A stretch of DNA of 60,984 bases from Bacteroidota bacterium (GCA_020048155.1 JAIFMY010000061.1:1-60984), one strand, 5' to 3'. Counted from the first letter of the stretch, positions 2,938 to 55,064 are shown. Notes: generated from the sequence alone by a model not told the origin. Made by a program: numbers and translations.

Positions 2938-4059
2938 ATGCGCATGCTTTTAATCATACTTCAAAAGGAATTTAAGCAGATATTCCGTAACAAAGTGATG
3001 TTGCCCATTATTTTTGTAATGCCCATCGTGCAAATGACCATCTTAGTGTATGCCGCTACCATGGAGATAAAAAACATCGATTTGCTTATAGTGGACCAAG
3101 ATTTGAGTGCTACATCGCGTGGCATCAGTTCTCATTTTCAGGGTTCCCCGTTTTTCAATACAGAGATATCGCAAATGAGTGCCAAAGATGCATACGGAAA
3201 ATTGGAATCAGACGAAGCCGACCTCATTTTGTTCATTCCTGCAAATATGGAACACGATTTATACCGAAATGGCAATGCGGTAATGCAAATCACCGCCAAC
3301 GCCATAAACGGCATGGTGGCAGGCATAGGTACTTCCATCGTTTCACAAACCATCATGCAATACAACCGAAATCTGGTGCTCAACTACTTGAAAGTGCCCG
3401 ATACACGCGGTATACAGCATCAAATATCTACCACATACAGGTATTGGTACAATCCTTATCTTGATTCTAAATCGTTTATGGTGCCGGGTATACTTACCAT
3501 ATTGGTAACTGCTATCGGACTGTTCTTATCAGGATTCAACTTGGTACGCGAGAAAGAATTGGGAACCATTGAACAAATAAATGTAACCCCCATAAAGAAA
3601 TATGCCTTTTTAGCCGGAAAACTTATCCCATTTATGGTGATAGCTTTATTTGACCTGACCTTAGGGTTGCTTTTCGGAAAATTGCTATTTGATGTGCCCA
3701 TAGTAGGAAATATATTGGTGATGTATACCATGGCTATTGCATACTTGTTGGTAGTGCTCAGCCTCGGATTATTATTATCAACCATCAGCAGTACTCAGCA
3801 GCAGGTGTTGTTTACTGCCTTTTTCTTCATGATTGTATTTATGCTCATGAGCGGGCTATTCACACCTACCGAAAGTATGCCCAACTGGGCTCAGGACGTG
3901 AACAAGATAAACCCTATTGCACATTTTATGCGAGCCATGCGTATGATATTGCTCAAAGGCAGCACCATGAACGATGTGTTGAGCGAATTTTTTATACTGA
4001 TGGGTACAGGCATTGTGCTAATGAGTACAGCCATATGGCGATACAAAAAGGCGAGCTAA
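2938..4059 (+). CDS. ABC-2 type permease (YbhR-like)
   Basis: KEFKQIFR, YNPYL...MVPG, REKELGTIEQINVTP motif, multiple TM helices. Confidence 0.93.
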   Translation: MRMLLIILQKEFKQIFRNKVMLPIIFVMPIVQMTILVYAATMEIKNIDLLIVDQDLSATSRGISSHFQGSPFFNTEISQMSAKDAYGKLESDEADLILFIPANMEHDLYRNGNAVMQITANAINGMVAGIGTSIVSQTIMQYNRNLVLNYLKVPDTRGIQHQISTTYRYWYNPYLDSKSFMVPGILTILVTAIGLFLSGFNLVREKELGTIEQINVTPIKKYAFLAGKLIPFMVIALFDLTLGLLFGKLLFDVPIVGNILVMYTMAIAYLLVVLSLGLLLSTISSTQQQVLFTAFFFMIVFMLMSGLFTPTESMPNWAQDVNKINPIAHFMRAMRMILLKGSTMNDVLSEFFILMGTGIVLMSTAIWRYKKAS

Positions 4060-5562: not shown

Positions 5563-8500
5563 ATGTTCAGAAGTTTATACTTTCCTTTGCTTTTCATCTT
5601 GCTTTTTTTCATACTTTTCACAGAAGCCCAATCTCAGAACGAGCGAATGCTTACATATAATAGCCGCAACAATGGTTTAGTGAATAATTTAACTAAAGCT
5701 GTGGCACAAGATAGTCTAGGGTTTGTGTGGGTTGCTACCGACGAAGGCCTTTCACGCTTCAATGGCATGGTGTTTCAGAACTTTTTAGCAGGGTTGCCTA
5801 GTAACTACGTTAAATCATTTTTAAAAACAAAAAACGGCGCGCTACTGGCGGCTACCGATATGGGGATTGTTAAAATTATTAGCAAACCCGATACTGCATA
5901 TTTTATAAATATCATAAAAGGCAGCGACCAAATTACCGACTCTACAGTGCATTATCCAAAGCTTATGATGGAAGACTCGAAGCAAAACATTTGGATAACC
6001 GACAACAAGGGAATAGTATGTTATAGGAATAAAACATTAAAAAGGTATGCTTTCGACCGAACGTTTAAAAATATTAACTACCAAAGAACCTTTTCGATTG
6101 TCGAAATGCCAAGCGGAAATATATTCGCTTTTTCGCCAGATGGCTACGCCTATTTTTTAGATAATAAAATCGATAACTTTATTGAAATAAAAGGACTTAC
6201 GCAGTTTCAAGGTGTAAACTTTGCAATCGCAATCAATGCAAATACCATATTGCTGGCTACAAGTTTAGGTATTTACGAACTCAAAACCGATGCTAACAAC
6301 ACGATCCTTAGTCATAGGAACATTTTTCCGGATATAGATGCTAGCTATATAGTACAGAAAAATGAATACGAATTTGCAATAAGCACTTGGGCAAGTTACG
6401 TTGTTGTTATTTCTAACCGCGATAATAAATATGAAATTAAAAAGACAAGTTATCTATCGGCACAAAGGGCCAATTGGATATATATTGATCGTTTTAAGAA
6501 CGCATTTGTGAGCACCGACGAAGGCATTGTTCTCATACAGCCAACACAATTTCTGGCTGAAACCAACAAGAATTACCAAAGTTACATCAATTCATTGTCC
6601 TTGTTTTCAGACCGCGAAATTTGGGCAACCAATTACGGCAGCATTCTAAAAATAAGTTATAGCAACAACCAAATTATAACAACGCCTATTGCCCGCCCTG
6701 CGCTTATAGGCGACATTTCGGCAGCTGTTCCCTCAAAAATTAAAGCAAACAGCTATTGGATTTCTACCAATGCAGCCATGCTATACTTTGTAGTAAATAA
6801 TAAAATTGAAAAAACAATTGATATTTCGGCCATCGGGAAAAACATGTTTACTTGCATGGAAGACGATGAAGAAAATCTTTGGGGCTGTGTAGATGGGTTC
6901 GACGGCGTTGTTAAAATTTCCCGCGATTTTGTACTTAAGCCTTATGGCAAAGATAAGGGACTAAATAACAAGCTTATAGTTGTAAAGCAACGAAGCGATG
7001 GTACCATTTTTGGAGGTGGAGGTACCGACAACAACTACCTATACCAATACAATAAAACCGAAGATAAATTTTATAATCTAAGCCGCAAATTAAATTTTAT
7101 AACCAATAACGATATATATATCAACGATATAGCATTTTACTCAAATATTATTTGGTTAGCAACAACCCATGGTGTGCTCAAATACGATTCTGTAAAAACC
7201 GAAAGATTAAATCTGGGCGATTATACCGAAAGAAATACGTTTTCGATTGCCGCCGAAAATAGCGGTGCGCTCTGGTTTTCTAATGGAAAAGGGGTAATGA
7301 AATACGCTAATAATCAGGCTGTGCTATTCGACGACAATAACGGTTTATCCAACTTAACAGCAACGTACCGCTGTTTGGCCATCGATAGCTTAAATCGTAT
7401 TTGGCTTGGTACCTCACTAGGGGTAAATTTTTCGGAGAACTTGGCTCAAACCCAATCTACACCATTGCCTATTATTACAAACATATACGTCAACAATAGC
7501 AAAATAAAAGACCTCACCGGACAAATAAAGTATACCAAAGGTTCTTTTCTCACACTAAACTTTTTTTCCCTATCGTTTCCCGGAAATGAAATAAGCTACC
7601 AGTACAAACTATCCGCCGAAAACAGCAATTGGATTGACATTCAATCGAAAACAGAACTTATATTACCAAACTTGCCGGTAGGTAAACACAGTTTTGAAAT
7701 AAGAGCGAAACAACAAGGCAATTATCAGTGGAGTGAAGGTACCAGACTCGAAATTTTGATAATTCGCCCTTGGTTCATGCGGTGGTGGGCTTACGTCCTG
7801 TATTTCATTGTCTTAAATCTGGTAATTTATGTAATTGTAAAAATAAATTCGAACCGTTTAGAAGCCCAAAAATTGCATTTGGAACAACTTGTGAAAGAGC
7901 GAACCAACGAAGTGGTAGCACAAAAAAATGAAATATTAGGTAAAAATGAAGTGCTGCAGCAAAATATGGAAGAGCTACGAACACTGAACGAAAACGTAGA
8001 AGAACAAAAAAATATAATTGCAAAAACAAATTTACGGCTACAACTTCAGGCAACCGAACTTTCAGAAAAAAATACCACCCTGGAGCAATTTAACTACCAG
8101 TTGAAAAAATATTACACTGTATTGGAACAAAGCCCTGCAGCAGTGCTTATAACCGACATAAACGGGACAATAGAATATGTAAACCCATTTTTCACAAAAC
8201 TAACCGGATACACTACGGATGAAGTGATTGGCAAAAATCCAAGAATATTAAAATCTAAAGAAACACCCAACGAAGTGTTTACCGACTTATGGAGCACTAT
8301 TTTAAGTGGCAAAATATGGGAGGGAACAATTACAAATCGTAAAAAAGACAAAAGCCTTATTGTAGAAAAAGTTATTATTGCCCCTATTTTCGACAACAAT
8401 ACCATCGTCAATTTTGTTGCCATTAAAAACGATGTAACAGAACTTATCAGGGCCGAAAAACTTATTCTTGAATCATTGGAAACCACACAGAAACAGAAAG

Positions 8501-13265: not shown

Positions 13266-14354
13266 CTATTTTTTCGATACCACTCTATAAACCTGTATTT
13301 TATCTCTTTTGCCTTTTACATGCAATGGCTCAAAAGCCTCGGTACGAAACAAATGAAAAGTTTTGTTGTACACGCTTTCTGAAATGAGAACGGTGTTTGG
13401 GTAGTCCTTAGTAATCATTTCTATACGTTTACCGGTATTTACAGTATCCCCGGTAACACTGAAATCAATGCGCTCTTCGCAGCCAAGGTTTCCGGCTACC
13501 ACTTCACCTGAATTTATGCCAATACCCACCTGAATATCATAGCCGAGCATAGGTTTGTATCTTTCGTTCAAACACTCGAGTTTACTCATCATTTCTAAGG
13601 CACAAAAAACAGCATTTTCTTCATTATTTGCGTAATTTACCGGAGTACCAAAGGTGGCAAATATTTCATCCCCAACAAATTGATTAACAACGCCATTGTG
13701 ACGTTTTATGCATTCGGTCATAAGCGAATAATAAGTATTCAGAAAATTGACCACTTCCTTGGGGGCTAGTACTTCACTCATAGGTGTAAATCCTCGTATA
13801 TCGCAAAAAAGCACTGAAATATGTTGCAATTCACCTTCAAAAATAGTTTCTTCAGATTGGTTTACAGCTTTTTGTACAACATGTTCGGGTACATATTTCA
13901 TAAAAATTCGTAAGATTTTTTCTTGCTCAGTAACTTTTTGCTGCAATTCGTGCAACAATTTTTTGTTCTGGTTCTGCAAATTAAACAAGTATCTGGAATT
14001 TTCTATGGTCATACGCAGCTCAGTTTCTTCCCAGGGTTTGGTAATGTAGCGGTATACCTGACCACTGTTTATAGCCTCAATGATGGCTGCAACATCGCTG
14101 AAGCCGGTAAGTATGATTCGAATGGCATCAGGAAACTCATTGCGCACTTTTTCCAGAAACTGCACCCCAGTCATATTGGGCATTCTTTGGTCGCTAATTA
14201 CGAGATGTATATTCTGCTGTCCTAAAAGCTTCAATCCATCTTCACCACTTTTGGCAGTGAAAATATTGTATTCGCGGCGGAAACTAGCTTTAAACGAAAC
14301 CAAATTTTGGTCTTCATCATCTACATACAAAATATTAAATTCGGGCACACTCAT
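13266..14354 (-). CDS. Response regulator receiver + class III adenylate/guanylate cyclase
   Basis: REC: VDDE, D55 (SDQRMP), TKPW. Cyclase: FCDIRGFT, FVGDE, GIGINSGEVVAGNLG, GDTVNTGKR. Confidence 0.93.
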   Translation of the reverse strand: MSVPEFNILYVDDEDQNLVSFKASFRREYNIFTAKSGEDGLKLLGQQNIHLVISDQRMPNMTGVQFLEKVRNEFPDAIRIILTGFSDVAAIIEAINSGQVYRYITKPWEETELRMTIENSRYLFNLQNQNKKLLHELQQKVTEQEKILRIFMKYVPEHVVQKAVNQSEETIFEGELQHISVLFCDIRGFTPMSEVLAPKEVVNFLNTYYSLMTECIKRHNGVVNQFVGDEIFATFGTPVNYANNEENAVFCALEMMSKLECLNERYKPMLGYDIQVGIGINSGEVVAGNLGCEERIDFSVTGDTVNTGKRIEMITKDYPNTVLISESVYNKTFHLFRTEAFEPLHVKGKRDKIQVYRVVSKK

Positions 14355-17300
14355 GATTCATCTGCTTTATCCGAGCCTTTTTCGGGTTCGTTATTCTGTT
14401 GAATGGGTAAAGTTATTAAAAATTCACTTCCTTCTCCAATTACACTATTCACTTTTATATCGCCTTTGTGTTTTTTGATGATGCCATATGAAATGGATAA
14501 GCCAAGCCCGGTGCCATTTCCTACATCTTTGGTAGTAAAAAATGGTTCAAAAATCCGTTCAATGATATCCTGAGGAATACCTTTTCCATTGTCGCGAATA
14601 GAAACATGAACAAAATCTTCTGCTACGGATGTAGTAATAGTAATTTGCCCACCAGTCTCATTCATAGCATCTACAGCATTGGAAATGATATTCATAAAAA
14701 CCTGATTGAGTTTGCCCGGATAGCAAATAATTTCTGGCAATTCGCCAAGTTGGAGCTGTACGTCGGCCCGGTTTTTTATTTTATTTCGCAATATAAGCAC
14801 CGTACTTTGAATGCCATCATTCACGTTGGCTAGTTTCATATCGTCTTCATCCAATCGGGAGAAATTGCGAAGTCCCTTCACTATATCCGTAGTTCGCTGG
14901 GCACCTTCTTTTATGCCGGAAATCAAAGCTTCGATTTCTTCCAATGTATATTTTAAGTCAATCTGAAGTTTAAATTTCTCAACTTCTTCAAACATATTTC
15001 CCAACTTATTCTTTTCTACAGATCCTTCATATAGTTTTAGTATGGCAAGCAAATCGTCGATATCACGTTTGAGAGGAGAAATATTTCCGTTAATAAAATT
15101 GATGGGGTTATTTATTTCATGTGCTACACCGGCAGTTAGTTGCCCCAAAGAAGCCATTTTTTCATGCGAAACCAATTGCGACTGCATTGCCCTAAGGTTC
15201 TCGAGTGTGGCATTAAGTTCTTCGTTCGAAGTATTGAGCTCCTCATTTATCTGATTTAGCTTATCGGCTTGAAGTTCCAGTTCTTTTTTCTGCTGTATTA
15301 CCTCTGAAGTACGCTCTGAAACTTTAATTTCGAGTTCTCGTTGGCGCGAACGCAAATTGCGGGTACGTATCTGAATAAACAAGGCAGTAATACCAAATAC
15401 AAAAAGAATTACAGAAATGAAAAACCAAGTAGTTTGATAGAAGGGCGGTGAAACGATGATGTGAATTTCTGTTCCAGTTTCGTTCCATATTCCATCATTG
15501 TTAGAAGCTTTTACTTTGAAAGTGTACTCACCAGGTAGCAATATATAGTTTGCAGTGCGCTCATTTCCAGTCATCACCCACTCTTTGTCCATGTTTTCCA
15601 TAAAAAAAGCATACTGATTACTTTCGGGTTCCGTAAAGTTAAGTGCTGCAAAAGTAAAACTTACTCTTCGTTGAGTATGGTTTAGTTTCAACTCATGAGT
15701 AGTAAAGATTGATGTATGCAGAGGAGTTTCACCATTTGCTCCTATGGGCACTGTTTCAAAAAAGAGTTTAAAATCGGTAATCACCACTGGAGGCACATAT
15801 TCATTTCCTATCACATCATCGGGCAAAAAATTAAGCACACCTTTTTCGCATCCCATATACATGCGGTTGTTTACAGAACGGTGTATGGCATTTATGTGAA
15901 ATTGAATACAGTTTATTCCGTCATTTTCATCGAAGGTAACAATATTTACGCCGGCATTTTTGGTCACTTTCACTTTAGCCAAGCCCTTTCCGGTAGTAAT
16001 CCAGAGGTTATTTTTGTCATCGGTAAGCAAGGAGTACACGCCATTATCGGGCAAGCCATCTTTTTTGGTAAGATGCAAAACATGAAAGTTGACAGGGTCG
16101 TAGCGCATAAGCCCGTCTTCAGTACCTAGCCATACAAAACCATTGTTATCTGACACACAGTTATTTATCTGACTTATTTTTTCAGAATATTCCTTTTTAA
16201 GCATAGGCAGGAAAGAATCGGAACCGGCATTGTATTTAAACAACTGATTAGTAGCCACAAGCCATATCTGGCCCTTATCATCGCTGGTTATATAGGTGAT
16301 TTCCTCACTAGGCAATTTACTATTCAGTTTCGAATAAGAAGAGAAACGTGTACGTTGGCTGTTTATCATCACCAAACCTTGTCTTGTAGCAACCCATAGG
16401 TTGTTGTAACTATCTTCGCACATAGAAAGGATATCTGAAAAGAGCATTTCAGCAATATCATTATTCTTCACATCGAGCAATACCGGGGCATCGTATGCAT
16501 CGTTTTTTGCAGAAAGTTTGGAGTAGTACAACCCTTTGCCTGCTGTTCCTATCCAAATATTGTATTGATGGTCGGTGTGCAAGGAGTAAACTACATCTAT
16601 GAATTGATTGTTGGTTGGCCTGACAATGTTCGATGTATTTTTGTCCATATCGTAGGTTATCAGCCCATTATCTGTACCCATCCAAACCTTGTTTAACTTG
16701 TCGGTGGTGATGGCATAAACATCGGTAGATGGGAAGAGCCACGATGTGGCATTGTTCTCAGGAAATTGTTTGAATATTCTACTACGTTGATGCACAGTTA
16801 CCGCACCTTGCCCATATGTACCAGCCCATAAGAGTCCGGATTTATCAATATATACATCGTACAGGTAGTTATTGGGCATGCTGTTTTTGTGGCTGCTTTG
16901 CTGAAAAACCAGAAGCTCATCAACAGATTGCTGCCAAAAAAACAAACCACTTCCAAAAGATGAAGCCCACATATTGCCCTTCCTGTCAATTTCAATATCT
17001 GTAATCTCGGCGTCTGCAAGTACTTCTTCATCGGGCAAAAAATTTCTGAATATCTTTTTATCGTATGAAAAATGCTTGATCCCTCTGTCGGTACCCAACA
17101 ATAAATCGCCTGTAGATTGCTCAGCAATGGCAGTTACTGCAAAATTGGCAGGAGTAGTATGGTTTCTTTGTGGAAAATTATCTCGGTAAATTAAGGTATA
17201 ATCAAGTTCTATGAGTCCATTATCGGTACCCAGAAAAATACTTTTGTTAGAATGTATAAGTATGTCGCGTATATTTTTGCTTCCAGGTATATGCCCTCTT

Positions 17301-17851
17301 ATAGGGAGATAAACCTCTTTCAGTAATTTAGCATTCATGTTGTAGTAAAACAACCCTGTATTTGTGCCCACGAGTATTGCCTCATTGTTGTAATTTACTA
17401 TTACATTCACTTCCACCTGTAGAAGGGATACAGAGTCGTTGTTGCTTATCGGCAGTTGCACAACCCTATCGGTATATTTGCTATAGGCGTACAAACCTGA
17501 ATTGCGGGTAGCAATGTATACAATTCCATTTGGTGCCTCTGCCAAACTTACAATAAAATCGCGGTTAGAACCATGTCTGCCGGGCAAAGGATACACAGTA
17601 AATTGGTTGCCATCGTACCTGTTCAAACCATCTTGTGTACCTATCCACATGAAACCTATAGAGTCTTGCGTAATGCAGTTTACCACACTTTGCGACAATC
17701 CTTTGTCGGTATCGTATTTTGCAATTACAAAAGACGACTGCTGAGCATGGATATTAAAATATAAACCTAACAAGATTAAAACGAAAATACCCCGGTTCAA
17801 AACCTGAGCCACATTATGATAATGAGGAAAAGAATGGGTATTTGAACGCAT
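14351..17851 (-). CDS. Periplasmic-propeller sensor histidine kinase (Reg_prop + Y_Y_Y + TM + HisKA + HATPase)
   Basis: GLSQSVVNCITQDSIGFMWIGTQDGLNRYDG; YAFFMENMDKEW...PGEYTFKVKASNNDGIW; H-box AGVAHEINNP; N-box NQVFMNIISNAVDA; G boxes DNGKG and GTGLGL. Confidence 0.93.
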   Translation of the reverse strand: MRSNTHSFPHYHNVAQVLNRGIFVLILLGLYFNIHAQQSSFVIAKYDTDKGLSQSVVNCITQDSIGFMWIGTQDGLNRYDGNQFTVYPLPGRHGSNRDFIVSLAEAPNGIVYIATRNSGLYAYSKYTDRVVQLPISNNDSVSLLQVEVNVIVNYNNEAILVGTNTGLFYYNMNAKLLKEVYLPIRGHIPGSKNIRDILIHSNKSIFLGTDNGLIELDYTLIYRDNFPQRNHTTPANFAVTAIAEQSTGDLLLGTDRGIKHFSYDKKIFRNFLPDEEVLADAEITDIEIDRKGNMWASSFGSGLFFWQQSVDELLVFQQSSHKNSMPNNYLYDVYIDKSGLLWAGTYGQGAVTVHQRSRIFKQFPENNATSWLFPSTDVYAITTDKLNKVWMGTDNGLITYDMDKNTSNIVRPTNNQFIDVVYSLHTDHQYNIWIGTAGKGLYYSKLSAKNDAYDAPVLLDVKNNDIAEMLFSDILSMCEDSYNNLWVATRQGLVMINSQRTRFSSYSKLNSKLPSEEITYITSDDKGQIWLVATNQLFKYNAGSDSFLPMLKKEYSEKISQINNCVSDNNGFVWLGTEDGLMRYDPVNFHVLHLTKKDGLPDNGVYSLLTDDKNNLWITTGKGLAKVKVTKNAGVNIVTFDENDGINCIQFHINAIHRSVNNRMYMGCEKGVLNFLPDDVIGNEYVPPVVITDFKLFFETVPIGANGETPLHTSIFTTHELKLNHTQRRVSFTFAALNFTEPESNQYAFFMENMDKEWVMTGNERTANYILLPGEYTFKVKASNNDGIWNETGTEIHIIVSPPFYQTTWFFISVILFVFGITALFIQIRTRNLRSRQRELEIKVSERTSEVIQQKKELELQADKLNQINEELNTSNEELNATLENLRAMQSQLVSHEKMASLGQLTAGVAHEINNPINFINGNISPLKRDIDDLLAILKLYEGSVEKNKLGNMFEEVEKFKLQIDLKYTLEEIEALISGIKEGAQRTTDIVKGLRNFSRLDEDDMKLANVNDGIQSTVLILRNKIKNRADVQLQLGELPEIICYPGKLNQVFMNIISNAVDAMNETGGQITITTSVAEDFVHVSIRDNGKGIPQDIIERIFEPFFTTKDVGNGTGLGLSISYGIIKKHKGDIKVNSVIGEGSEFLITLPIQQNNEPEKGSDKADES

Positions 17852-17853
17852 CG

Positions 17854-20037
17854 TTATTGTTGTCTGAAGGTATCACGTTTTAAATTTCGGTCATAGTATG
17901 GTATGCCAGCGGCTTCCAATTCCTGTTTTGCTGCCAGCAGTTTTTTGTACAGAAAATTATGGGTGTCATACTGCGCCCTTACAGGAACATCGGTTTCACT
18001 TCGCAGTATGGGGTGCATTTCCAAATCGGAAGTTATGAGATGGGCTTTGGTATTATCTCGAAGTTGTAATTGAAGTATCTGATACAATTCTGCTTTTATT
18101 TCTTCATCAAATATGGGTACACCGGCCTCTACCCTCCGGGTTAGATTTCGTTTCATCCAGTCAGCCGAAGAAATATATGTATCGTTTTGGCCATTGTTGT
18201 GAAAAATGAATACACGTGAATGCTCTAAATATCGGTCAATGATACGAACTACCCTGATGTTTTTGCTATATGCCTGCCCAGGCACCAGGCAACAAATACC
18301 CCTTACTATGAGGTCTATTGTAACACCGGCTTCACTGGCTTTATAGAGTTTGTTTATCATTCCAATTTCTTCAAGGCTATTCATTTTCAATATCATATGC
18401 CCTTTCAATCCTTTTTTTACATGCTCAATTTCTCGGTTTATAAGGCGTGTAAACTCTTCAACCATATTAAAATTAGGTACTAGCAATTGCTTAAACTTAA
18501 TTTCAGGAGATTTAGTTTCCAAATATACAAACATTCTTTTCAGCTCATCTACCAATTCTTGGCGAGAGGTAAACAAACCATGATCCGCATATTGCTTGGC
18601 AGTTTTTTCATTCAGGTTTCCGGTTCCTACAAATGCATACCCACGGCGGATATTATCTTTAGACGACCGTCTGATAACCAAGGCAACTTTCGAATGTACT
18701 TTTATGCCAGGTATACTTTGCATCACTTTTATACCAGCACGTTGCATGATGTCAGCAAAATAGAGGTTCTTCGCTTCGTCGAACCTGGCTTTTACTTCTA
18801 CAAAAACTGTTACATTTTTGCCATTGCGGGCAGCACTTATCAGGGCACTTACCACTGCACTGTTGCTGGCCACTCGGTATTGAGTAACTTTTATTTCTTC
18901 CACTTTGGGGTCGGTAGCAGCTTCGTTCAGGAAGCTAATCAGATACTCAAAAGAGTGATAAGGAAAATGCAACATTATATCCCTCAATTTTATAGCATCA
19001 AATATAGAGGTATACCGCATGAGGATAGGATGATCCATATGAGGCAAATCGGGAGCTTCGAGTAAAGGTTTTTTCGGATTGGGAAAATCGTGCAAATCGT
19101 GCAAGTTATGGTACTCACCACCGGGCACCATATCCTCCTTCGAAAGGTTAAAAGCCTCGCGCAGAAGTCTCAGTGAGTTTAAAGGTATGCTTCGGTCGTA
19201 CAAAAAACGAGCAGGCGCACCGGTTTTTCTACGTATAAGACTTTGGCGAATTTTTTCCATCAAATTCCCTTTATATTCATCTTCGATAGAGAGCTCGGCA
19301 TCTCGTGAAACTTTTATACTATAAGCATTTTCAATTCGATATCCCGGAAAGATACGATACAAATTGAGTCTGATCACATCATCAAGAAACATGATATGAA
19401 AATTCCCATCGTTGGATGGAATTTGCAAAAAACGGGGCACATGATGTGCCGGAATTCGAACAATAGCATGTTTGACTCTCTCTGTACCCGTTTTATTCTT
19501 ATTCACAACCATTTTTTTGCACAGTCTTATGGCGAGATATCCAACGTTGTCTTCTAAAAACGACAATATCTTGCCTTTTTCGAGCAATGATGGCTGAATA
19601 TGCGGCATTACTTCGTGATAAAAGTAATCTTCTACAAAATGAAATTGTTCTACCGATAGTTTGTCACCGCTCTGGTATAAGATAATACCGTTTTCCGCCA
19701 GTTCGTTCCACACTTTCACCCTGAAAAGATTTACAAATCGATCCATTTGCTGCGTAACTTCCTCATTTATAAGACCAATAAGGGTATGCGGATTAAAATC
19801 CAGTTTTTTTCGGCTTTCGGCTGTCAGACCAAGTATACTACGCACAGATGCAACCCTGACTCTGTAGAACTCATCCATGTTTGATGAGTATATAGCCAGG
19901 TATTTTATACGTTCGTATAGAGGAAGATTGTTATCATCGGCCTCTTCAAGTACCCGCAAATTAAAAGACAACCAGCTTAAATCCCGGTTGTGATAAGTAT
20001 ATTTTTCCTTGCTCAGATTGTCAGTAATACTTGCCAT
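17854..20037 (-). CDS. ppk1: Polyphosphate kinase 1
   Basis: NRDLSWLSFNLRVL, IYSSNMDEFYRVRV, LHFPYHSF, YRVA, ARFDE, VHSKV, GTGNLN, YLEHSR, SSADWM. Start set at ATG 20037. Confidence 0.96.
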   Translation of the reverse strand: MASITDNLSKEKYTYHNRDLSWLSFNLRVLEEADDNNLPLYERIKYLAIYSSNMDEFYRVRVASVRSILGLTAESRKKLDFNPHTLIGLINEEVTQQMDRFVNLFRVKVWNELAENGIILYQSGDKLSVEQFHFVEDYFYHEVMPHIQPSLLEKGKILSFLEDNVGYLAIRLCKKMVVNKNKTGTERVKHAIVRIPAHHVPRFLQIPSNDGNFHIMFLDDVIRLNLYRIFPGYRIENAYSIKVSRDAELSIEDEYKGNLMEKIRQSLIRRKTGAPARFLYDRSIPLNSLRLLREAFNLSKEDMVPGGEYHNLHDLHDFPNPKKPLLEAPDLPHMDHPILMRYTSIFDAIKLRDIMLHFPYHSFEYLISFLNEAATDPKVEEIKVTQYRVASNSAVVSALISAARNGKNVTVFVEVKARFDEAKNLYFADIMQRAGIKVMQSIPGIKVHSKVALVIRRSSKDNIRRGYAFVGTGNLNEKTAKQYADHGLFTSRQELVDELKRMFVYLETKSPEIKFKQLLVPNFNMVEEFTRLINREIEHVKKGLKGHMILKMNSLEEIGMINKLYKASEAGVTIDLIVRGICCLVPGQAYSKNIRVVRIIDRYLEHSRVFIFHNNGQNDTYISSADWMKRNLTRRVEAGVPIFDEEIKAELYQILQLQLRDNTKAHLITSDLEMHPILRSETDVPVRAQYDTHNFLYKKLLAAKQELEAAGIPYYDRNLKRDTFRQQ

Positions 20038-20135
20038 ATAAATCCATTTATTTGCTTTAGAGACTCTAACGACTTTTTTGAAAAGATATTTTTTAAATTT
20101 CAATATTAATATAGACCAAAAAACTATCTTGTCAA

Positions 20136-46858: not shown

Positions 46859-47848
46859 ATGCTCAAATTTCTGATTATTCAGACAGCATTTATAGGCGAT
46901 GTGATATTAGCTACTGCACTTATTGAAAAGCTGAATGAAAACTTCCCTGATGCCAAAATCGATTTCTTGCTGCGGAAAGGAAATCAGGGTTTACTGCATA
47001 ATCATCCGCATATCAATAAATTAATCATCTTTGATAAATCGAAAGGGAAATACCAGAATTTGCTTACACTCATAAAGCTGATAAAGAACGAGGAGTATAA
47101 TTATGTAATCAATGCCCAGCGGTTCTTTACTACTGGAGTGATCACTGTTTTTTCAGGCGCCAAAAACACAATTGGTTTTGATAAGAATCCGCTTTCGCGT
47201 TTATTTACACAACGTAAGATTCATGCTTTGGGCAAAACGCACGAAATAGAGCGCAATCAAGCCCTCATAGCAGATCTAACCGACAAGGAGCCAGCATTGC
47301 CAAAACTTTACCCCAGTGTAGCCGATTTCGAAAAAATGCGCCCCAAGGCTCCATTCATTTGTATTGCTCCCACATCTGTATGGTTTACAAAGCAATACCC
47401 TACTGCTCGATGGATAAATCTAATTAATAATATTCCGCCAAAATATACTATCTATTTACTTGGCTCACTCGCAGACTGGAATACCTGCCAGACTATTGCA
47501 GCAGGCAGCAGGCACAAACAAATAGAAAATCTGAGTGGTCAGCTTAGCTTTTTACAATCGGCGGCACTTATGGCCGGAGCTGCCATGAATTACGTGAACG
47601 ACTCGGCCCCGCTGCATATTGCCAGTGCAATGAATGCCCCTGTTACTGCAATTTTTTGCAGCACAGTGCCCGAATTTGGTTTTACCCCCCTCAGCTCTAA
47701 GAGCTATATTGTACAAACCCGCGAAAAACTAAATTGCCGGCCATGTGGGTTACATGGTCACCGAAAATGTCCCAAACAACATTTTAAATGTGCAAATACT
47801 ATAGAAGTGGAAGATCTGCTTGCCCCGCTGCTTCATAATAAAACGTAA
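46859..47848 (+). CDS. Glycosyltransferase family 9 (heptosyltransferase-like)
   Basis: QTAFIGDVILAT, KQYP, NDSAPLHIASAMNAP, FCSTVPEFGF, CRPCGLHGHRKCP. Confidence 0.93.
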   Translation: MLKFLIIQTAFIGDVILATALIEKLNENFPDAKIDFLLRKGNQGLLHNHPHINKLIIFDKSKGKYQNLLTLIKLIKNEEYNYVINAQRFFTTGVITVFSGAKNTIGFDKNPLSRLFTQRKIHALGKTHEIERNQALIADLTDKEPALPKLYPSVADFEKMRPKAPFICIAPTSVWFTKQYPTARWINLINNIPPKYTIYLLGSLADWNTCQTIAAGSRHKQIENLSGQLSFLQSAALMAGAAMNYVNDSAPLHIASAMNAPVTAIFCSTVPEFGFTPLSSKSYIVQTREKLNCRPCGLHGHRKCPKQHFKCANTIEVEDLLAPLLHNKT

Positions 47849-47883
47849 ATGAGTTATGAGTTGTGAGTTATGAGTTATGAGTT
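47849..47883 (+). repeat. Heptamer tandem repeat (ATGAGTT)x5
   Basis: ATGAGTT ATGAGTT GTGAGTT ATGAGTT ATGAGTT starting immediately after the GT9 stop codon. Confidence 0.9.
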
Positions 47884-47906
47884 ATTAATAAATAAGAAAA
47901 TATTTC

Positions 47907-47934
47907 TCAATTATCCATTATCAATTATCAATTA
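47907..47934 (-). repeat. Heptamer tandem repeat (TAATTGA)x4 on the minus strand
   Basis: Plus strand TCAATTA TCCATTA TCAATTA TCAATTA; the first unit on the minus strand contains the yfiR stop codon. Confidence 0.85.
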
Positions 47935-48449
47935 ACCACATACCCTTTTTGCATCAGTGCATCGGCCATTTTCAGGTTATGAAATGCCAATTGTTTTTTA
48001 TTCACTTCAAATTTCAGGTTGTCGTTTTCGAGGGCAACAAAGTTAATGCACGCACCTTTTTTGGCCAATCCGCCACGCTCTGCCACTATAAGTATTGGGC
48101 TATCTTTTACTTTGTCCAATATACTTTTAAGTTCTCTGCTTTTGGATGCCGGTATGTAAACAATCTGAAAATCTGCTAAATCAGCCATATTGCTTATTTG
48201 TTCAACTTGTATATGTTGACCTGAAGGTGTTTTCTTAAGGGTAGCCATTATTTGTAATTCCCCCATGATTGGAGATGACCCATATACAGCAATGCGAAAA
48301 AAATCTTGTTTTAAAACTTGAGCAGGCCACGTAATATTTTTAGTAAACAGATATATATACAGCGATTGTGATTTATAATTTACATCTTGGGTTAAGGCTT
48401 CCAAAATAGAAATACACATAAATATAAATAAGAGTATACCTTTCCTCAT
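47928..48449 (-). CDS. YfiR/DUF4154 family periplasmic protein
   Basis: Signal peptide; YIYLFTKNITWP, IAVYG, IVYIP, PILIVAE, INFV...KFEVN; ATGA overlap with the TonB receptor gene. Confidence 0.85.
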   Translation of the reverse strand: MRKGILLFIFMCISILEALTQDVNYKSQSLYIYLFTKNITWPAQVLKQDFFRIAVYGSSPIMGELQIMATLKKTPSGQHIQVEQISNMADLADFQIVYIPASKSRELKSILDKVKDSPILIVAERGGLAKKGACINFVALENDNLKFEVNKKQLAFHNLKMADALMQKGYVVN

Positions 48450-51007
48450 TTTTGCCCCCCTCTCCAGTGCGGATTTCCACCAAAGTGCCAGGCAGCCTTT
48501 ATAAAAAATTCGCGCGAAAGAGCCGGCAATGTCTGGTTAAGACCAAAATAGGGTTGAATATATTCGTATTTTCGATTTTGAGTGTTGTTTACACCAAAAC
48601 CAAGTTCAAGTCCCTTCTCGCCTTGATAACCCAAAAATAAATTGGTGACCCAAGTTGAACTAAATTTTTGGTGTACCCCGTATATATTCAATTTTTCGGG
48701 CAATATTACATTCCCATCTATATCTTTAACATCTGGGTATTGCACCAGTGTGAATCCGTAACGCTCTCCAAAGTACTTCGAATTGATATTAAAACTAAAT
48801 TTTTTTGTAAGATACAAGGTAAAATTGAGAGATCCCGAATGCATAGGAAAAGCCAGAACGTTCCAATTGGTAATTGTTTTTCGGTTTTCAGGGTCGTAAG
48901 AGAAAGTAGTAACTTTATAATCCATAGGGACTTTGTGGCCAGCTACGGTATTGAATGAATAATTGGCATCAAATGTACCCCAAGAATACCTGCCTATAAA
49001 TTGCAATTCTAAACCAGAAGAACCCGATTCATCAAAATTTGTATAAAAACGATATCCGGGCAAAGCCATGGCATCCGTTCTGTTTTTTTGTTCAAAAATA
49101 TTGAGCATCAATTGCGACTGGTTGAGCGAATAAACAATCGGATTGCGGGTATGTATATAGAAAATATTGGCAGTAAGCATCACATTTTTTGTTAGTTGCC
49201 TACCCAACTCAAACTCAACTACAGTAGTTTTTTCGGGTTTAAGTTTGCGCTCCATCCACAATATTTCAGAAGTGTCGCCATTAACTATATAATTCTCAGT
49301 ATATGATTGTGCAATATTCCCTGCCGAAGGTGCCCTGAAAGCCCTGTTGAATAAAACCTTAAAATGCCACTCCGCAAATTTGCGGGTAAACCCAATTCGG
49401 GGCGCAAGACTGGAGCCATAGGCAGAGTTCTGGTCATAACGCAATCCGAATGTGATGTTCACTAATGGGAATTTTTGAATTGTCTGATAGTAAGCAGACA
49501 GGTTTCTATAATTTAAATCTTTGATTTCGTTCACCGGGCTCAGCATGTCAAAAGCTTGGGTATAATAATCGATGAAGTATTCGCTTCCGATCATATGACT
49601 TGACCGTACTGAATTGTCATATTGTAAAACACCACCAATTTTAATTCTGCTTGTAAAATTGGTAGATTCGTCATACAACTCATCATTGTTGGTTTCTGTG
49701 TATTGTGAAACAGTATTCAATTTAGGAGTAAAGCTAAAATGTTCTGAGATTTTCCATTTGTAGCTCATTTCAGTAAAATTCATTTTATTCCCAACACGCA
49801 CAGGACGAGAGCCATCTTTGGAAATTTTAGAAATATCCTGCACATTTAAAAAATCGGTAATGGTGCGAATTGAAAAGTTGTTGTAAGTAAAAAGCACATT
49901 GGATAAACTAGGCAACACGTCGGAATTTCCTTTTAGCGAAGCATACTTTCCAATACCAGCACCACTGTTTACCCATTCAGTCATAGGAAAAAAACCAAAA
50001 TAATTGGCATCAGATTGTTGTGCTATGCCGCCATAATACCATACAGAAAGCGCAGCCTTGGTCCATTTTTTCCCGTAGGATATTTTGAACAAATCTGAAG
50101 TGTGCATTTTACTGGTTTGCCCTGTTGAATAACCAACGGAGAGTCCATTCATTTCTCCAGGTGAGTATGTGACTATATTGATGACTGCAAACTCTGCGAA
50201 TCCCCCGTAATTGATACTTCCGGGGCCACGTATAACTTCAATCCGCTTTATAAAATCAACAGGAAAACGTTTGTTAATTGTAAGTTGAGCAGAGTATATA
50301 TCATTCATTTCCTGCCCATCGAGCAGCAACAATACCTTTCCATCGTTGGCCCAATTGCCCCGCACACCAATCCCCAAATTTCCGGCCTCGCCCAAAGCCA
50401 CGTGAAAACCGGGCACAAGCCGCAGCACATCCATGATATCACGAGCACCGAGTGCTTTTATTTGCGCATCTGTGATTACAGTTATCACGCTGGGAGCATT
50501 CCGAATAGACAAATCGACTTGGGTCGATGAGTTGGTAAGCATATTAAGCTCGGTGTGCAATTCAGATTCGCATTTCGATGCCTTTATATCATCAATATCT
50601 TCGATATCAGTATCATAAAAATTATCTTCGAATCGCTTTATACTATCGAGGATGGAATAAGTATGGGTATCTATAAAAAGAGCAGCAGTATCTACATATG
50701 TAATTCCTTTATTTTTGAGTACAGTTATAAGACTGTCTGCTATTTGTACTTCCTTGTGCTTATTCAGATGCTTGTTTAATCCTTCTAATTTATACAACAA
50801 AAACTGACGAAATTCTTCAGATTCGGCCATAATCATTGCTCGCCGTTGTTCGGTTTTGTTGTCAAAAAAATTGTCATGTAACACGGATGAATCAGTGGTC
50901 AAACTGTCAGCATGCATTATTGCAGAGGTATCTGATTGTGCTGATACGCCAATTGGGATAAGCACCAATACTAAATAGCAAAATATGTATCTGTAAATTT
51001 TCATCAT
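48446..51007 (-). CDS. TonB-dependent outer-membrane receptor (non-SusC) with N-terminal extension
   Basis: Plug APSVITVIT...LRLVPG...VRG...LLLDG...IKRIEVIRGPGSINYG...VINIVT; barrel motifs FGLRYD, FRAPS, LKPEK. Start at ATG 51007 (GTG 51049 also possible). Confidence 0.9.
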   Translation of the reverse strand: MMKIYRYIFCYLVLVLIPIGVSAQSDTSAIMHADSLTTDSSVLHDNFFDNKTEQRRAMIMAESEEFRQFLLYKLEGLNKHLNKHKEVQIADSLITVLKNKGITYVDTAALFIDTHTYSILDSIKRFEDNFYDTDIEDIDDIKASKCESELHTELNMLTNSSTQVDLSIRNAPSVITVITDAQIKALGARDIMDVLRLVPGFHVALGEAGNLGIGVRGNWANDGKVLLLLDGQEMNDIYSAQLTINKRFPVDFIKRIEVIRGPGSINYGGFAEFAVINIVTYSPGEMNGLSVGYSTGQTSKMHTSDLFKISYGKKWTKAALSVWYYGGIAQQSDANYFGFFPMTEWVNSGAGIGKYASLKGNSDVLPSLSNVLFTYNNFSIRTITDFLNVQDISKISKDGSRPVRVGNKMNFTEMSYKWKISEHFSFTPKLNTVSQYTETNNDELYDESTNFTSRIKIGGVLQYDNSVRSSHMIGSEYFIDYYTQAFDMLSPVNEIKDLNYRNLSAYYQTIQKFPLVNITFGLRYDQNSAYGSSLAPRIGFTRKFAEWHFKVLFNRAFRAPSAGNIAQSYTENYIVNGDTSEILWMERKLKPEKTTVVEFELGRQLTKNVMLTANIFYIHTRNPIVYSLNQSQLMLNIFEQKNRTDAMALPGYRFYTNFDESGSSGLELQFIGRYSWGTFDANYSFNTVAGHKVPMDYKVTTFSYDPENRKTITNWNVLAFPMHSGSLNFTLYLTKKFSFNINSKYFGERYGFTLVQYPDVKDIDGNVILPEKLNIYGVHQKFSSTWVTNLFLGYQGEKGLELGFGVNNTQNRKYEYIQPYFGLNQTLPALSREFFIKAAWHFGGNPHWRGGQK

Positions 51008-51048
51008 AAATAATAAAAAGGAAATGTTTTTGTAATATCCAAACGTCA

Positions 51049-51447
51049 CTATCTTAACGACAAAATACTCTTTGCCCGAGTAAGCGCCTCATTTACAGTA
51101 GTATCAACATAGTATGGTACAGGCATTTTGGTGATTAGTAAAATGCCTTGAAAAAGCATTTTTACCATTGCATTAGGCACAACAAATATTTGGGCGATGC
51201 ATTCCCGTTTTATTTGAGCAGCATTTTCATTTATCCATTTCCCTTGCTTAATTCTTAGCTTAGAAGAAAGGTACTTAGACTGCGAGGCATCAAATACCAA
51301 AATAAAATTGCTATATTGGGTATATAAAGATTCCATTTTTTTCAGGTACTCTTCGAACACATCTTCAGTGGGTTCAAACTCAGCATATTTTATGATTATA
51401 ATAGGCAACTTCGAATCATCGATGTTGGCATATTGTATTTTTTCCAT
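51049..51447 (-). CDS. STAS/SEC14-like (SpoIIAA-like) small cytoplasmic protein
   Basis: Alternating beta/alpha pattern with ILVFDASQSKYLSS, IFVVPNAMVKMLF and terminal NEAL; first gene of the receptor operon. Confidence 0.6.
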   Translation of the reverse strand: MEKIQYANIDDSKLPIIIIKYAEFEPTEDVFEEYLKKMESLYTQYSNFILVFDASQSKYLSSKLRIKQGKWINENAAQIKRECIAQIFVVPNAMVKMLFQGILLITKMPVPYYVDTTVNEALTRAKSILSLR

Positions 51448-51465
51448 TTCGTATTGTCTTTAGTG

Positions 51466-51473
51466 CAAAAATA
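51466..51473 (-). promoter_or_regulatory. -7 box for the STAS/TBDR/YfiR operon
   Basis: Minus strand TATTTTTG, 18 nt upstream of the ATG. Confidence 0.55.
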
Positions 51474-54631: not shown

Positions 54632-55006
54632 CTAAATTATATTGTGAATCATTTTGATAGGCAATTTGGTAATTTTCTGAATGATTTCAGCATATTCCAA
54701 AATGTCATCATCGTCGTAATACCAATTTATTTCAACGTTATCATTTATATCATACAATTCCCGTATTTTCTTCACCATAGTAAAAATCCATTTCGAAGAA
54801 CTGGTGTTGAAATAATCCATCTTGATATTTACAACAGTCTTAGGGCACATCTGTTTCGCATACAAATCAATCCACTGAATCAAAGGCTCGTAGAATGCTG
54901 GAGCGTTCTCAACAATTGACCTTCCGCTAATTTCCAACATCCCTTCCTGTGCATCAAAATTTACAGAGGGCATTTTTTTATTTCCTTTGATAACAATATT
55001 TTCCAT
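54632..55006 (-). CDS. siaC: Second SiaC-family protein (DUF1987), orphan
   Basis: PSVNFD, SGRSIVEN, DYFNTSSSK (Thr68), VEINWYYDDDDILEYAE. Confidence 0.88.
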   Translation of the reverse strand: MENIVIKGNKKMPSVNFDAQEGMLEISGRSIVENAPAFYEPLIQWIDLYAKQMCPKTVVNIKMDYFNTSSSKWIFTMVKKIRELYDINDNVEINWYYDDDDILEYAEIIQKITKLPIKMIHNII

Positions 55007-55064
55007 ATATATATCTGCAAAAATTTCTAAATCAGAAAACGAAAACATCGCTTTATTCGTTCTT

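Follow-up and report, generated by a model that had tools for sequence, protein, structure and literature searches.

The window analysed here is a stretch of 60,984 nucleotides from a Bacteroidota bacterium (GCA_020048155.1 JAIFMY010000061.1:1-60984), and our subject is a unit on its minus strand in which three co-directional open reading frames (ORFs) follow one another head to tail: a 132-residue gene of STAS-like fold, a TonB-dependent receptor gene and a DUF4154/YfiR-like gene. We conclude, with moderate confidence, that an envelope-signalling module has the receptor and the YfiR-like protein as its outer half, that the sensor of this module is a histidine kinase encoded at 17851..14351 of the same window, that the ancestral operon has been split, and that the small STAS-fold gene stands outside the module. 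Linkage, orthology and co-occurrence all point to an ancestral receptor-YfiR-kinase-REC-output operon, whose two pieces would now lie ~30 kb apart.

A conserved receptor-YfiR pair and its linked sensors

We surveyed relatives of the receptor in one genome per species (496 relatives) and analysed the best 80 loci, almost all of which were from Bacteroidota. A DUF4154 gene lay directly 3' of the receptor gene, on the same strand, in 72 of these 80 loci, frequently with a 4-nucleotide overlap. Judged by gene order, the receptor and YfiR-like genes are a strongly conserved Bacteroidota unit. A preliminary description of this DNA had proposed that a TonB receptor takes the place of YfiB as the outer-membrane partner of YfiR, and the survey supports this. 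The same description had called the signalling chain undescribed, which is too strong: the pairing is already catalogued, because NCBIfam holds a model for the TOL_0243 family of YfiR-like periplasmic proteins (NF053591) together with a curated partner model for the TOL_0244 TonB-dependent receptor (NF053590). Of the NCBIfam models, NF053591 fitted the YfiR-like proteins of the window (78 bits) and of related loci (110-113 bits) best (cut-off 125), and the receptor scored 71 bits against NF053590 (cut-off 645). As these scores are below the curated cut-offs, the Bacteroidota lineage is best placed as a sister group, and not a member, of the two families. No experimental study of the receptor/YfiR-like pair or of the NF053590/NF053591 families was found in the literature searched.

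The receptor (51007..48446, minus strand; 853 residues from its ATG) has a signal peptide, a flexible N-terminal tail, a plug and a beta-barrel. Pfam Plug matched with an E-value of 1.9e-18, and the Pfam barrel model gave no match. In the AlphaFold model (predicted local distance difference test, pLDDT, 80.7) the plug and barrel were well defined from about residue 155, with the barrel mostly above 85, and the best Foldseek fit was BtuB (template modelling (TM) score 0.88 over the target; E 1e-32), and PirA, Cir and FepA came next. These closest folds, BtuB and catecholate-siderophore receptors, give few clues to what the receptor binds. On this model, the receptor is a complete BtuB-like transporter with its plug in a full beta-barrel. 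The plug domain spans residues 172-285 (50153..50494, minus strand), of which PF07715 covers 182-285, with invariant columns from P172. A conserved stretch lies ahead of it (consensus VASKKPLS.RESPSIVSLIT; SSTQVDLSIRNAPSVITVIT in the window), where the TonB-box position was examined. No Pfam match to an STN signalling domain was found in the receptor, whose N-terminal 150 residues were modelled as low-confidence helices.

Within this N-terminal region, residues 25-128 (50624..50935, minus strand) form an extension that appeared in alignments in the window and in one 72-74% identical relative (L001) only; it is predicted to be helical and flexible (pLDDT <60). It is followed by a conserved periplasmic N-terminal peptide, residues 129-155 (50543..50623, minus strand), which reads NFYDTDIEDIDDIKASKCESELHTELN in the window and has the family consensus (D/N)(Y/F)YDMSLEQL..LK....SELE..IN. 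Among 47 receptors, its most constant columns were Y131 (37/42), L135 (40/46), E136 (39/46), L138 (42/45), K142 (40/46), E149 (41/46) and N155 (45/46). At the other end of the protein, 11 extra residues (GGNPHWRGGQK; 48446-48481, minus strand) extend past the aromatic end (..AAWHF) at which relatives stop; this tail is common to the window and L001, and overlaps the start of the yfiR-like gene.

The YfiR-like protein (48449..47928, minus strand; 173 residues) begins with MRKGILLFIFMCISILEALTQ, which we read from the sequence as a signal peptide. It matched Pfam DUF4154 (2e-28), scoring 99.7 bits against PF13689 (cut-off 24.9) over model positions 2-140 of 143. Searched alone against the PDB, it reached YfiR only at E 0.81; a profile built from 44 receptor-paired DUF4154 homologues matched only YfiR chains in the PDB (4yn7, 5y61, 4zhu and others), at E 5e-5 and near full length. 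These matches identify it as a periplasmic member of the DUF4154/YfiR-HmsC family. YfiR structures have two disulfides. As the mature window protein has one Cys only, it would lack both of them.

Which sensors accompany the pair elsewhere? A divergently transcribed membrane sensor was present in 25 loci, and was a HAMP-SpoIIE protein in 21 and a HisKA_2 kinase in four. The sensor of the 21 loci has ~590 residues, with a four-helix-bundle/HAMP region followed by SpoIIE (PP2C), and its best NCBIfam model was SiaA, with 230 bits across the HAMP-PP2C part. At six loci, the DUF4154 gene was directly followed by the gene for a Reg_prop/Y_Y_Y histidine kinase (~1140 residues); at one of these (L047, which is G060:C24), genes for a REC-SpoIIE protein and a REC-cyclase followed the kinase. 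In a maximum-likelihood tree of 74 receptors, the window and L001 fell together with all six kinase-linked loci in a 12-row clade (100% support), and the phosphatase-linked loci were all in the other, 62-row clade. Two further loci of the window's clade (L043 and L049) had the receptor duplicated in tandem before a single DUF4154 gene, with the kinase orthologue on another contig.

A histidine kinase and REC-cyclase in the same window

No membrane sensor gene was found inside the three-gene unit or directly adjoining it. The unit had been described as an operon without an inner-membrane transducer, and of the unit itself this is correct; the same window, however, carries orthologues of the linked kinase and REC-cyclase at 17851..13266. 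The kinase (17851..14351, minus strand; 1166 residues) has a signal anchor, Reg_prop repeats, Y_Y_Y, HisKA and HATPase domains, with a periplasmic propeller region of ~770 residues and a transmembrane helix near residues 806-828. Its end is overlapped by 4 nucleotides by the gene for a REC-class III nucleotide cyclase (14354..13266, minus strand; Pfam Response_reg and Guanylate_cyc). The gene for polyphosphate kinase (ppk1) precedes the kinase gene by 2 nucleotides, so that ppk1, kinase and REC-cyclase are packed at 13266-20103 on the minus strand. The kinase gene appears to have landed behind ppk1 after the operon was split.

Compared over its full length, the window kinase has 34-41% identity to the six linked kinases; with that of L047, the identity is 40% over 1125 residues. 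When the six linked kinases were searched against the window's genome, the window kinase was the best match for them, at 564-755 bits and full length, the next matches being partial and at most 434 bits. The reverse search, with the window kinase, returned the same six first; these are reciprocal best matches. In L047 and L050, the REC-cyclase encoded after the linked kinase has 61-65% identity to that of the window. The order of kinase then REC-cyclase was also kept at L141, where the kinase is unlinked from the pair and the REC-cyclase is 57% identical. We also looked in the window's genome for a full-length REC-SpoIIE protein like that of L047, and found only a distant one, on contig C5.

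Co-occurrence of the kinase with the pair was searched for in the genomes from which 20 of the loci came. A kinase orthologue (565-824 bits; eight full-length and the ninth cut at a contig end) was present in all nine genomes that belong to the receptor clade of the window and in none of the 11 genomes of the other clade (best matches partial and at most 345 bits), in a comparison of genomes that are not phylogenetically independent. In four of the nine, the kinase was located away from the pair. Among 60 close relatives, G060 alone had an orthologue-level receptor (8e-140) and G060 alone had an orthologue-level kinase (4e-240); there, the two genes are adjacent. From orthology and co-occurrence, the window kinase is most probably the inner-membrane sensor of the pair. 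The preliminary description had YfiR relay to a sensor elsewhere, perhaps a SpoIIE phosphatase. The first part of this stands: the partner of the YfiR-like protein is very probably a membrane sensor whose gene lies elsewhere. The suggestion of a phosphatase holds for the sister clade, with its SpoIIE sensors (21 loci), and the genome also has two DUF4154-SpoIIE fusions, but the window's own clade has a histidine kinase and a REC-cyclase.

In YfiBNR, YfiR represses YfiN and is itself sequestered at the outer membrane by YfiB. By analogy with this system and with FecA-type signalling, we propose the following steps for the window. The state of the receptor, whether ligand-bound or TonB-energised, would alter the holding of the YfiR-like protein at the receptor's N-terminal peptide. 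Depending on its amount, free YfiR-like protein would bind, and probably restrain, the periplasmic domain of the kinase. The kinase would phosphorylate the REC-cyclase encoded right behind it, so the output would be a cyclic nucleotide.

Several observations weigh against this proposal, beside the shared ancestry of the genomes compared. That the YfiR-like protein touches the receptor or the kinase is suggested by gene linkage and co-occurrence only. The double propeller and Y_Y_Y of the kinase are unlike the PAS/CHASE8 region bound by YfiR in YfiN, and would therefore require another mode of binding. In the window, the N-terminal peptide departs from the consensus at several positions, and the receptor sits on a long branch (1.45 substitutions per site). 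Finally, about half of the 72 receptor-YfiR pairs have no sensor nearby, so that a role free of any sensor is possible.

This last point, together with the complete BtuB-like transporter, also favours an alternative in which the pair is independent of the distant propeller kinase, and either works with another sensor (a CHASE8 kinase or a SpoIIE phosphatase) or forms an uptake system with the YfiR-like protein as a binding or escort protein. The genome would not be short of other partners, since the assembly (3.9 Mb, 251 contigs) contains 14 DUF4154 copies and very many sensors. We nevertheless regard this alternative as unlikely. Other DUF4154 copies come with an adjacent or fused sensor of their own: they adjoin CHASE8 kinases (C212, C129 and C106), a hybrid kinase (C236) and methyl-accepting chemotaxis protein (MCP)-signal proteins (C181, and C212, where an OmpA-family gene lies upstream), and two are fused to SpoIIE (C55). 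As read from sequence only, a further copy (C22) is fused to a kinase, and the one on C198 has a permease-like gene as its neighbour. No copy but the window's follows a receptor gene. Wherever DUF4154 has been characterised or occurs in a fusion, moreover, it regulates a membrane sensor (PMC3375315). Independence from the kinase also sits poorly with a kinase orthologue that was present in nine of nine genomes against none of 11, and directly linked to the pair in six.

Two other arrangements of DUF4154 in this genome are described here in their own right. On C55 (2343-8707), two fusions of DUF4154, coiled coil, membrane helix and SpoIIE (654 and 875 residues) flank a 187-residue gene and a SiaC-family gene, in what looks like a self-contained YfiR-headed phosphatase switch. 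On C72 (6397-11731), a 354-residue protein of two tandem DUF4154 domains follows a 1422-residue protein. At least 40 SpoIIE-domain genes are present in the genome, many of them behind Reg_prop/Y_Y_Y periplasmic domains, together with 13 SiaC-family genes and only four canonical STAS matches; its signalling parts are strongly expanded for 3.9 Mb.

The small STAS-fold gene

The small gene (51447..51049, minus strand) opens the unit. A Bacteroidota-type -7 box, TATTTTTG, lies 19 nucleotides 5' of its ATG (51473-51466, minus strand), with TTTG ~25 nucleotides farther upstream. The box is the sole TAnnTTTG on the minus strand from 51473 to 49100, the density of the motif being 0.77 per kb per strand. 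A terminator scan gave no candidates between the three genes and a single minus-strand match, inside the receptor ORF, a count not above that in shuffled sequences. The receptor TGA and the yfiR-like ATG are joined as ATGA, with a 4-nucleotide overlap, and a glycosyltransferase family 9 (GT9) gene (46859..47848, plus strand) converges on the end of the operon. The presence of three genes with one -7 box, an ATGA overlap and a convergent GT9 gene had been noted before, and was confirmed by ORF, motif and Pfam checks. On this layout, the small gene is probably co-transcribed with the receptor-YfiR-like pair. Two short heptamer tandem arrays, ATGAGTT x5.3 at 47849-47885 and TCAATTA x4 at 47907-47934, take up the space between the converging GT9 and yfiR-like genes, and the second of them overlaps the yfiR-like stop codon.

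The start of the receptor is a little different from that proposed at first. The small gene's TAG does have one base in common with a GTG at 51049, as had been noted, and read from this codon the receptor would have 867 residues. We dropped the GTG in favour of the ATG at 51007, which is more likely to be the start because it opens the signal peptide MMKIYRYIFCYLVLVLIPIGVSAQ and because all homologues have the same start. With this ATG the two genes do not overlap, and are separated by a gap of 41 nucleotides.

The small protein is predicted to be cytoplasmic, and had no match in Pfam (including Pfam STAS, PF01740), NCBIfam or PDB sequence searches. Its AlphaFold model, made from only three sequences, had a pLDDT of 91.4 and the order beta-beta-alpha-beta-alpha-beta-alpha-beta-alpha. 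The top Foldseek matches in the PDB were all STAS-type (a Dyadobacter STAS protein, the DUF3478 protein 2q3l, RsbS and SpoIIAA), with SiaC lower; the best structural fit was 2q3l (DUF3478, 'SpoIIAA-like'; TM score 0.70), and the Foldseek probability was 1.00 to STAS, RsbS and SpoIIAA. The small protein is thus modelled with a STAS/SpoIIAA-like fold, and on this point the Foldseek comparison agrees with the preliminary description. An exhaustive HMMER search recovered its family, of which a word-indexed search had given two homologues only: stand-alone proteins of ~130 residues in 775 representative clusters (E <= 1e-3). The family is related to DUF7793 (PF25056), to which 28 of 50 members matched weakly, and SpoIIAA-like PF11964 matched six of 50. 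It is sparse, with relatives in only three of 401 genomes of the phylum. Its near-fixed signature is D53, R65, Q68, G69 and W71, with Arg65 invariant. We propose that the small protein is a cytoplasmic binding module of the STAS/Sec14-like class.

Could the small protein nevertheless be the end point of the pathway? It had been suggested that a signal passes from the receptor, by way of the YfiR-like protein, to a SpoIIE-type phosphatase elsewhere, and that the co-transcribed STAS-like protein is its phospho-Ser substrate. There is something to be said for this. The fold is of the right kind, and Ser61 and Ser62, in the DASQSKYLSS segment that had been loosely aligned to the STAS phosphosite, are at the N-terminus of helix alpha2, the site of the phospho-Ser of SpoIIAA. 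The small gene stands under the sole -7 box of the unit, and L001, which has the same synteny, keeps it ahead of the receptor. The sister clade links the pair to SiaA-like SpoIIE phosphatases, and two of the at least 40 SpoIIE-domain genes of the window's genome have a DUF4154 head. A 48%-identical homologue (L002) is convergent to a 75-residue ORF with a SpoIIE/PP2C signature (2946-3173, minus strand; ..DIVSGDFYW..AADSTGHGVPGA..); this ORF, on a short contig from a metagenome, resembles part of a phosphatase gene.

The evidence against this chain is stronger, and we consider it highly improbable, with the small protein's role as substrate probably a mistaken assignment. No relative of the small protein was found in any of the 80 receptor loci, and the scarcity of its family in the phylum points the same way. 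Nor is the candidate Ser conserved: across 50 family members, position 62 is Ser in 25, Thr in six, Ala in 14, Gly in two, Phe in two and His in one (Ser/Thr in 31 of 50), and position 61 is Ser in 23 and Pro in 11. The protein has no Pfam STAS match, and no partner kinase (SpoIIAB/RsbW type) or PP2C gene was found beside the small gene in the window or in the sampled contexts of its relatives, except for the convergent SpoIIE-like fragment of L002. The window's receptor clade is linked to kinases and not to phosphatases. Within the kinase-linked clade no conserved small gene was found upstream of the receptor (an unrelated lipoprotein gene in L047, and ComEC, a peptidase or nothing in others), and no STAS or SiaC gene was found among the other neighbours of the 72 pairs, which were assorted housekeeping genes. 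Finally, the switch proteins beside DUF4154-SpoIIE genes are SiaC-type. Given the 13 SiaC genes, one of them between the C55 fusions, the likely substrates of YfiR-headed PP2C phosphatases in this genome are SiaC-type proteins, and not the DUF7793-like protein. A stand-alone SiaC-family (DUF1987) gene is also present 3.2 kb upstream of the operon (54632-55048, minus strand; Pfam 9.5e-35), with no SiaA or SiaB gene adjoining it.

The neighbours of other family members are equally varied. In seven independent contexts the receptor-YfiR pair was absent and the neighbours were unrelated: ValRS and the convergent SpoIIE-like fragment (L002), gltBD and an acetyl-CoA hydrolase (L025), assorted small genes (L026), a GT2 gene (L038), GatC and peptidase M1 (L134), BshC and RF-2 (L135), and a HAD hydrolase (L137). 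Some family members were on contigs too short to show neighbours, and a metagenome scan yielded one 1-kb contig. The eighth context (L035-L037) also had no receptor-YfiR pair; it has an SNF2 helicase upstream and a 531-residue STN/CarbopepD_reg outer-membrane protein downstream. In L035 (~6001-8053), the family member is 40% identical and lies 50 nucleotides 5' of the 531-residue protein, which matches STN (weakly) and CarbopepD_reg_2. This is a second instance of the family preceding a TonB-related outer-membrane protein.

We propose that the STAS-fold gene is a lineage-specific neighbour that shares a promoter with the pair only in the window's lineage, and that it is outside the module. Two observations weigh against leaving it out: it appears to share the promoter and persists in L001, and in L035-L037 one family member is directly upstream of an outer-membrane STN/CarbopepD_reg protein.

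Comparison of the three genes with those of L001 gave a nonsynonymous rate (dN) of ~0.2 and a saturated synonymous rate (dS) for each, so that no numeric dN/dS can be given; with dN at ~0.2 and dS saturated, all three appear to be under purifying selection. That the pair is a decaying, functionless remnant of the operon break-up, as the long branch to the window and L001 receptors, the diverged N-terminal peptide and the 11-residue tail beyond the usual terminal aromatic residue might suggest, is the least probable reading and hardly tenable given these rates, three ORFs that stay intact in both of two genomes with 72-76% protein identity, and the retention of the core plug/barrel motifs and DUF4154 core residues.

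Comparison with known envelope-signalling systems

If the pair relays outer-membrane events to inner-membrane sensors, it would be a major unrecognised signalling route, as the pair is very widely recurrent. What is new here is a partner of the propeller-kinase/REC-cyclase type and the retrieval of a sensor that is not linked to its pair; the module itself is already catalogued. A pair without a sensor gene need not be an orphan, and phyletic profiles can locate the sensor when it is unlinked. The range of partners extends beyond YfiN-like sensors, and includes propeller/Y_Y_Y kinases with REC-cyclase output and SiaA-like PP2C phosphatases. A further outcome is the definition of a sparse family of STAS-like proteins, with an invariant Arg, that is related to DUF7793. 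A gene in the same operon can be a lineage-specific hitch-hiker, as the STAS-fold gene would be, and pathway models should leave such neighbours out.

Somewhat speculatively, and with less confidence than we have in the module itself, we suggest that receptor/YfiR-like pairs could be a general third TonB-dependent signalling route, beside the FecA-type sigma/anti-sigma route and import-then-sense. An adaptor of the YfiR fold would shuttle between the N-terminal peptide of the receptor and interchangeable sensors, and in the window an event at the outer membrane would set the level of a cyclic nucleotide through genes 30 kb apart.

Among the closest known systems are YfiBNR (with the sensor TpbB/DgcN; P. 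aeruginosa and E. coli) and HmsCDE (Yersinia), in which a soluble periplasmic protein of the DUF4154/YfiR type likewise comes between a protein of the outer membrane and a sensor of the inner membrane. According to Malone et al. 2012, the core of the Yfi system is modular: its outputs include kinase, MCP and GGDEF-EAL types, and YfiB is often absent; TonB is never mentioned there (PMC3375315). The window differs from YfiBNR in several respects. The outer-membrane partner is a TonB-dependent receptor and not an OmpA/Pal-like lipoprotein such as YfiB, and the yfiR-like gene has the receptor and GT9 genes as its neighbours. The putative sensor is a double-propeller/Y_Y_Y protein with HisKA and HATPase domains instead of a PAS/CHASE8-HAMP protein, and its gene is unlinked. 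The putative output is a class III REC-cyclase and not GGDEF. The NF053590/NF053591 families share with the window the order of a receptor gene directly followed by a YfiR-like gene, and the window's scores are below their cut-offs.

For the small protein, the comparison is with SpoIIAA/RsbV and DUF3478/DUF7793, with which it has the same beta-alpha STAS fold in common. Unlike SpoIIAA/RsbV, it has no Pfam STAS match, no conserved alpha2 Ser and no partner kinase or phosphatase gene nearby.

As in FecA-FecR-FecI, the receptor would signal through its periplasmic N-terminus to an inner-membrane protein. In contrast to that system, there is no STN domain and no pair of anti-sigma and extracytoplasmic function (ECF) sigma factors; a soluble adaptor is interposed, and the target would be a two-component kinase. 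The hybrid two-component systems of Bacteroides couple Reg_prop/Y_Y_Y periplasmic sensors to SusC/D uptake. The proposed module shares with them the architecture of the periplasmic sensor, and in both a TonB-dependent outer-membrane protein would feed that sensor. However, the kinase of the window has neither a REC domain nor an AraC output of its own, its receptor is BtuB-like and not SusC-like and has no SusD, and here a YfiR-like protein would be interposed between receptor and kinase, with a REC-cyclase as the output.

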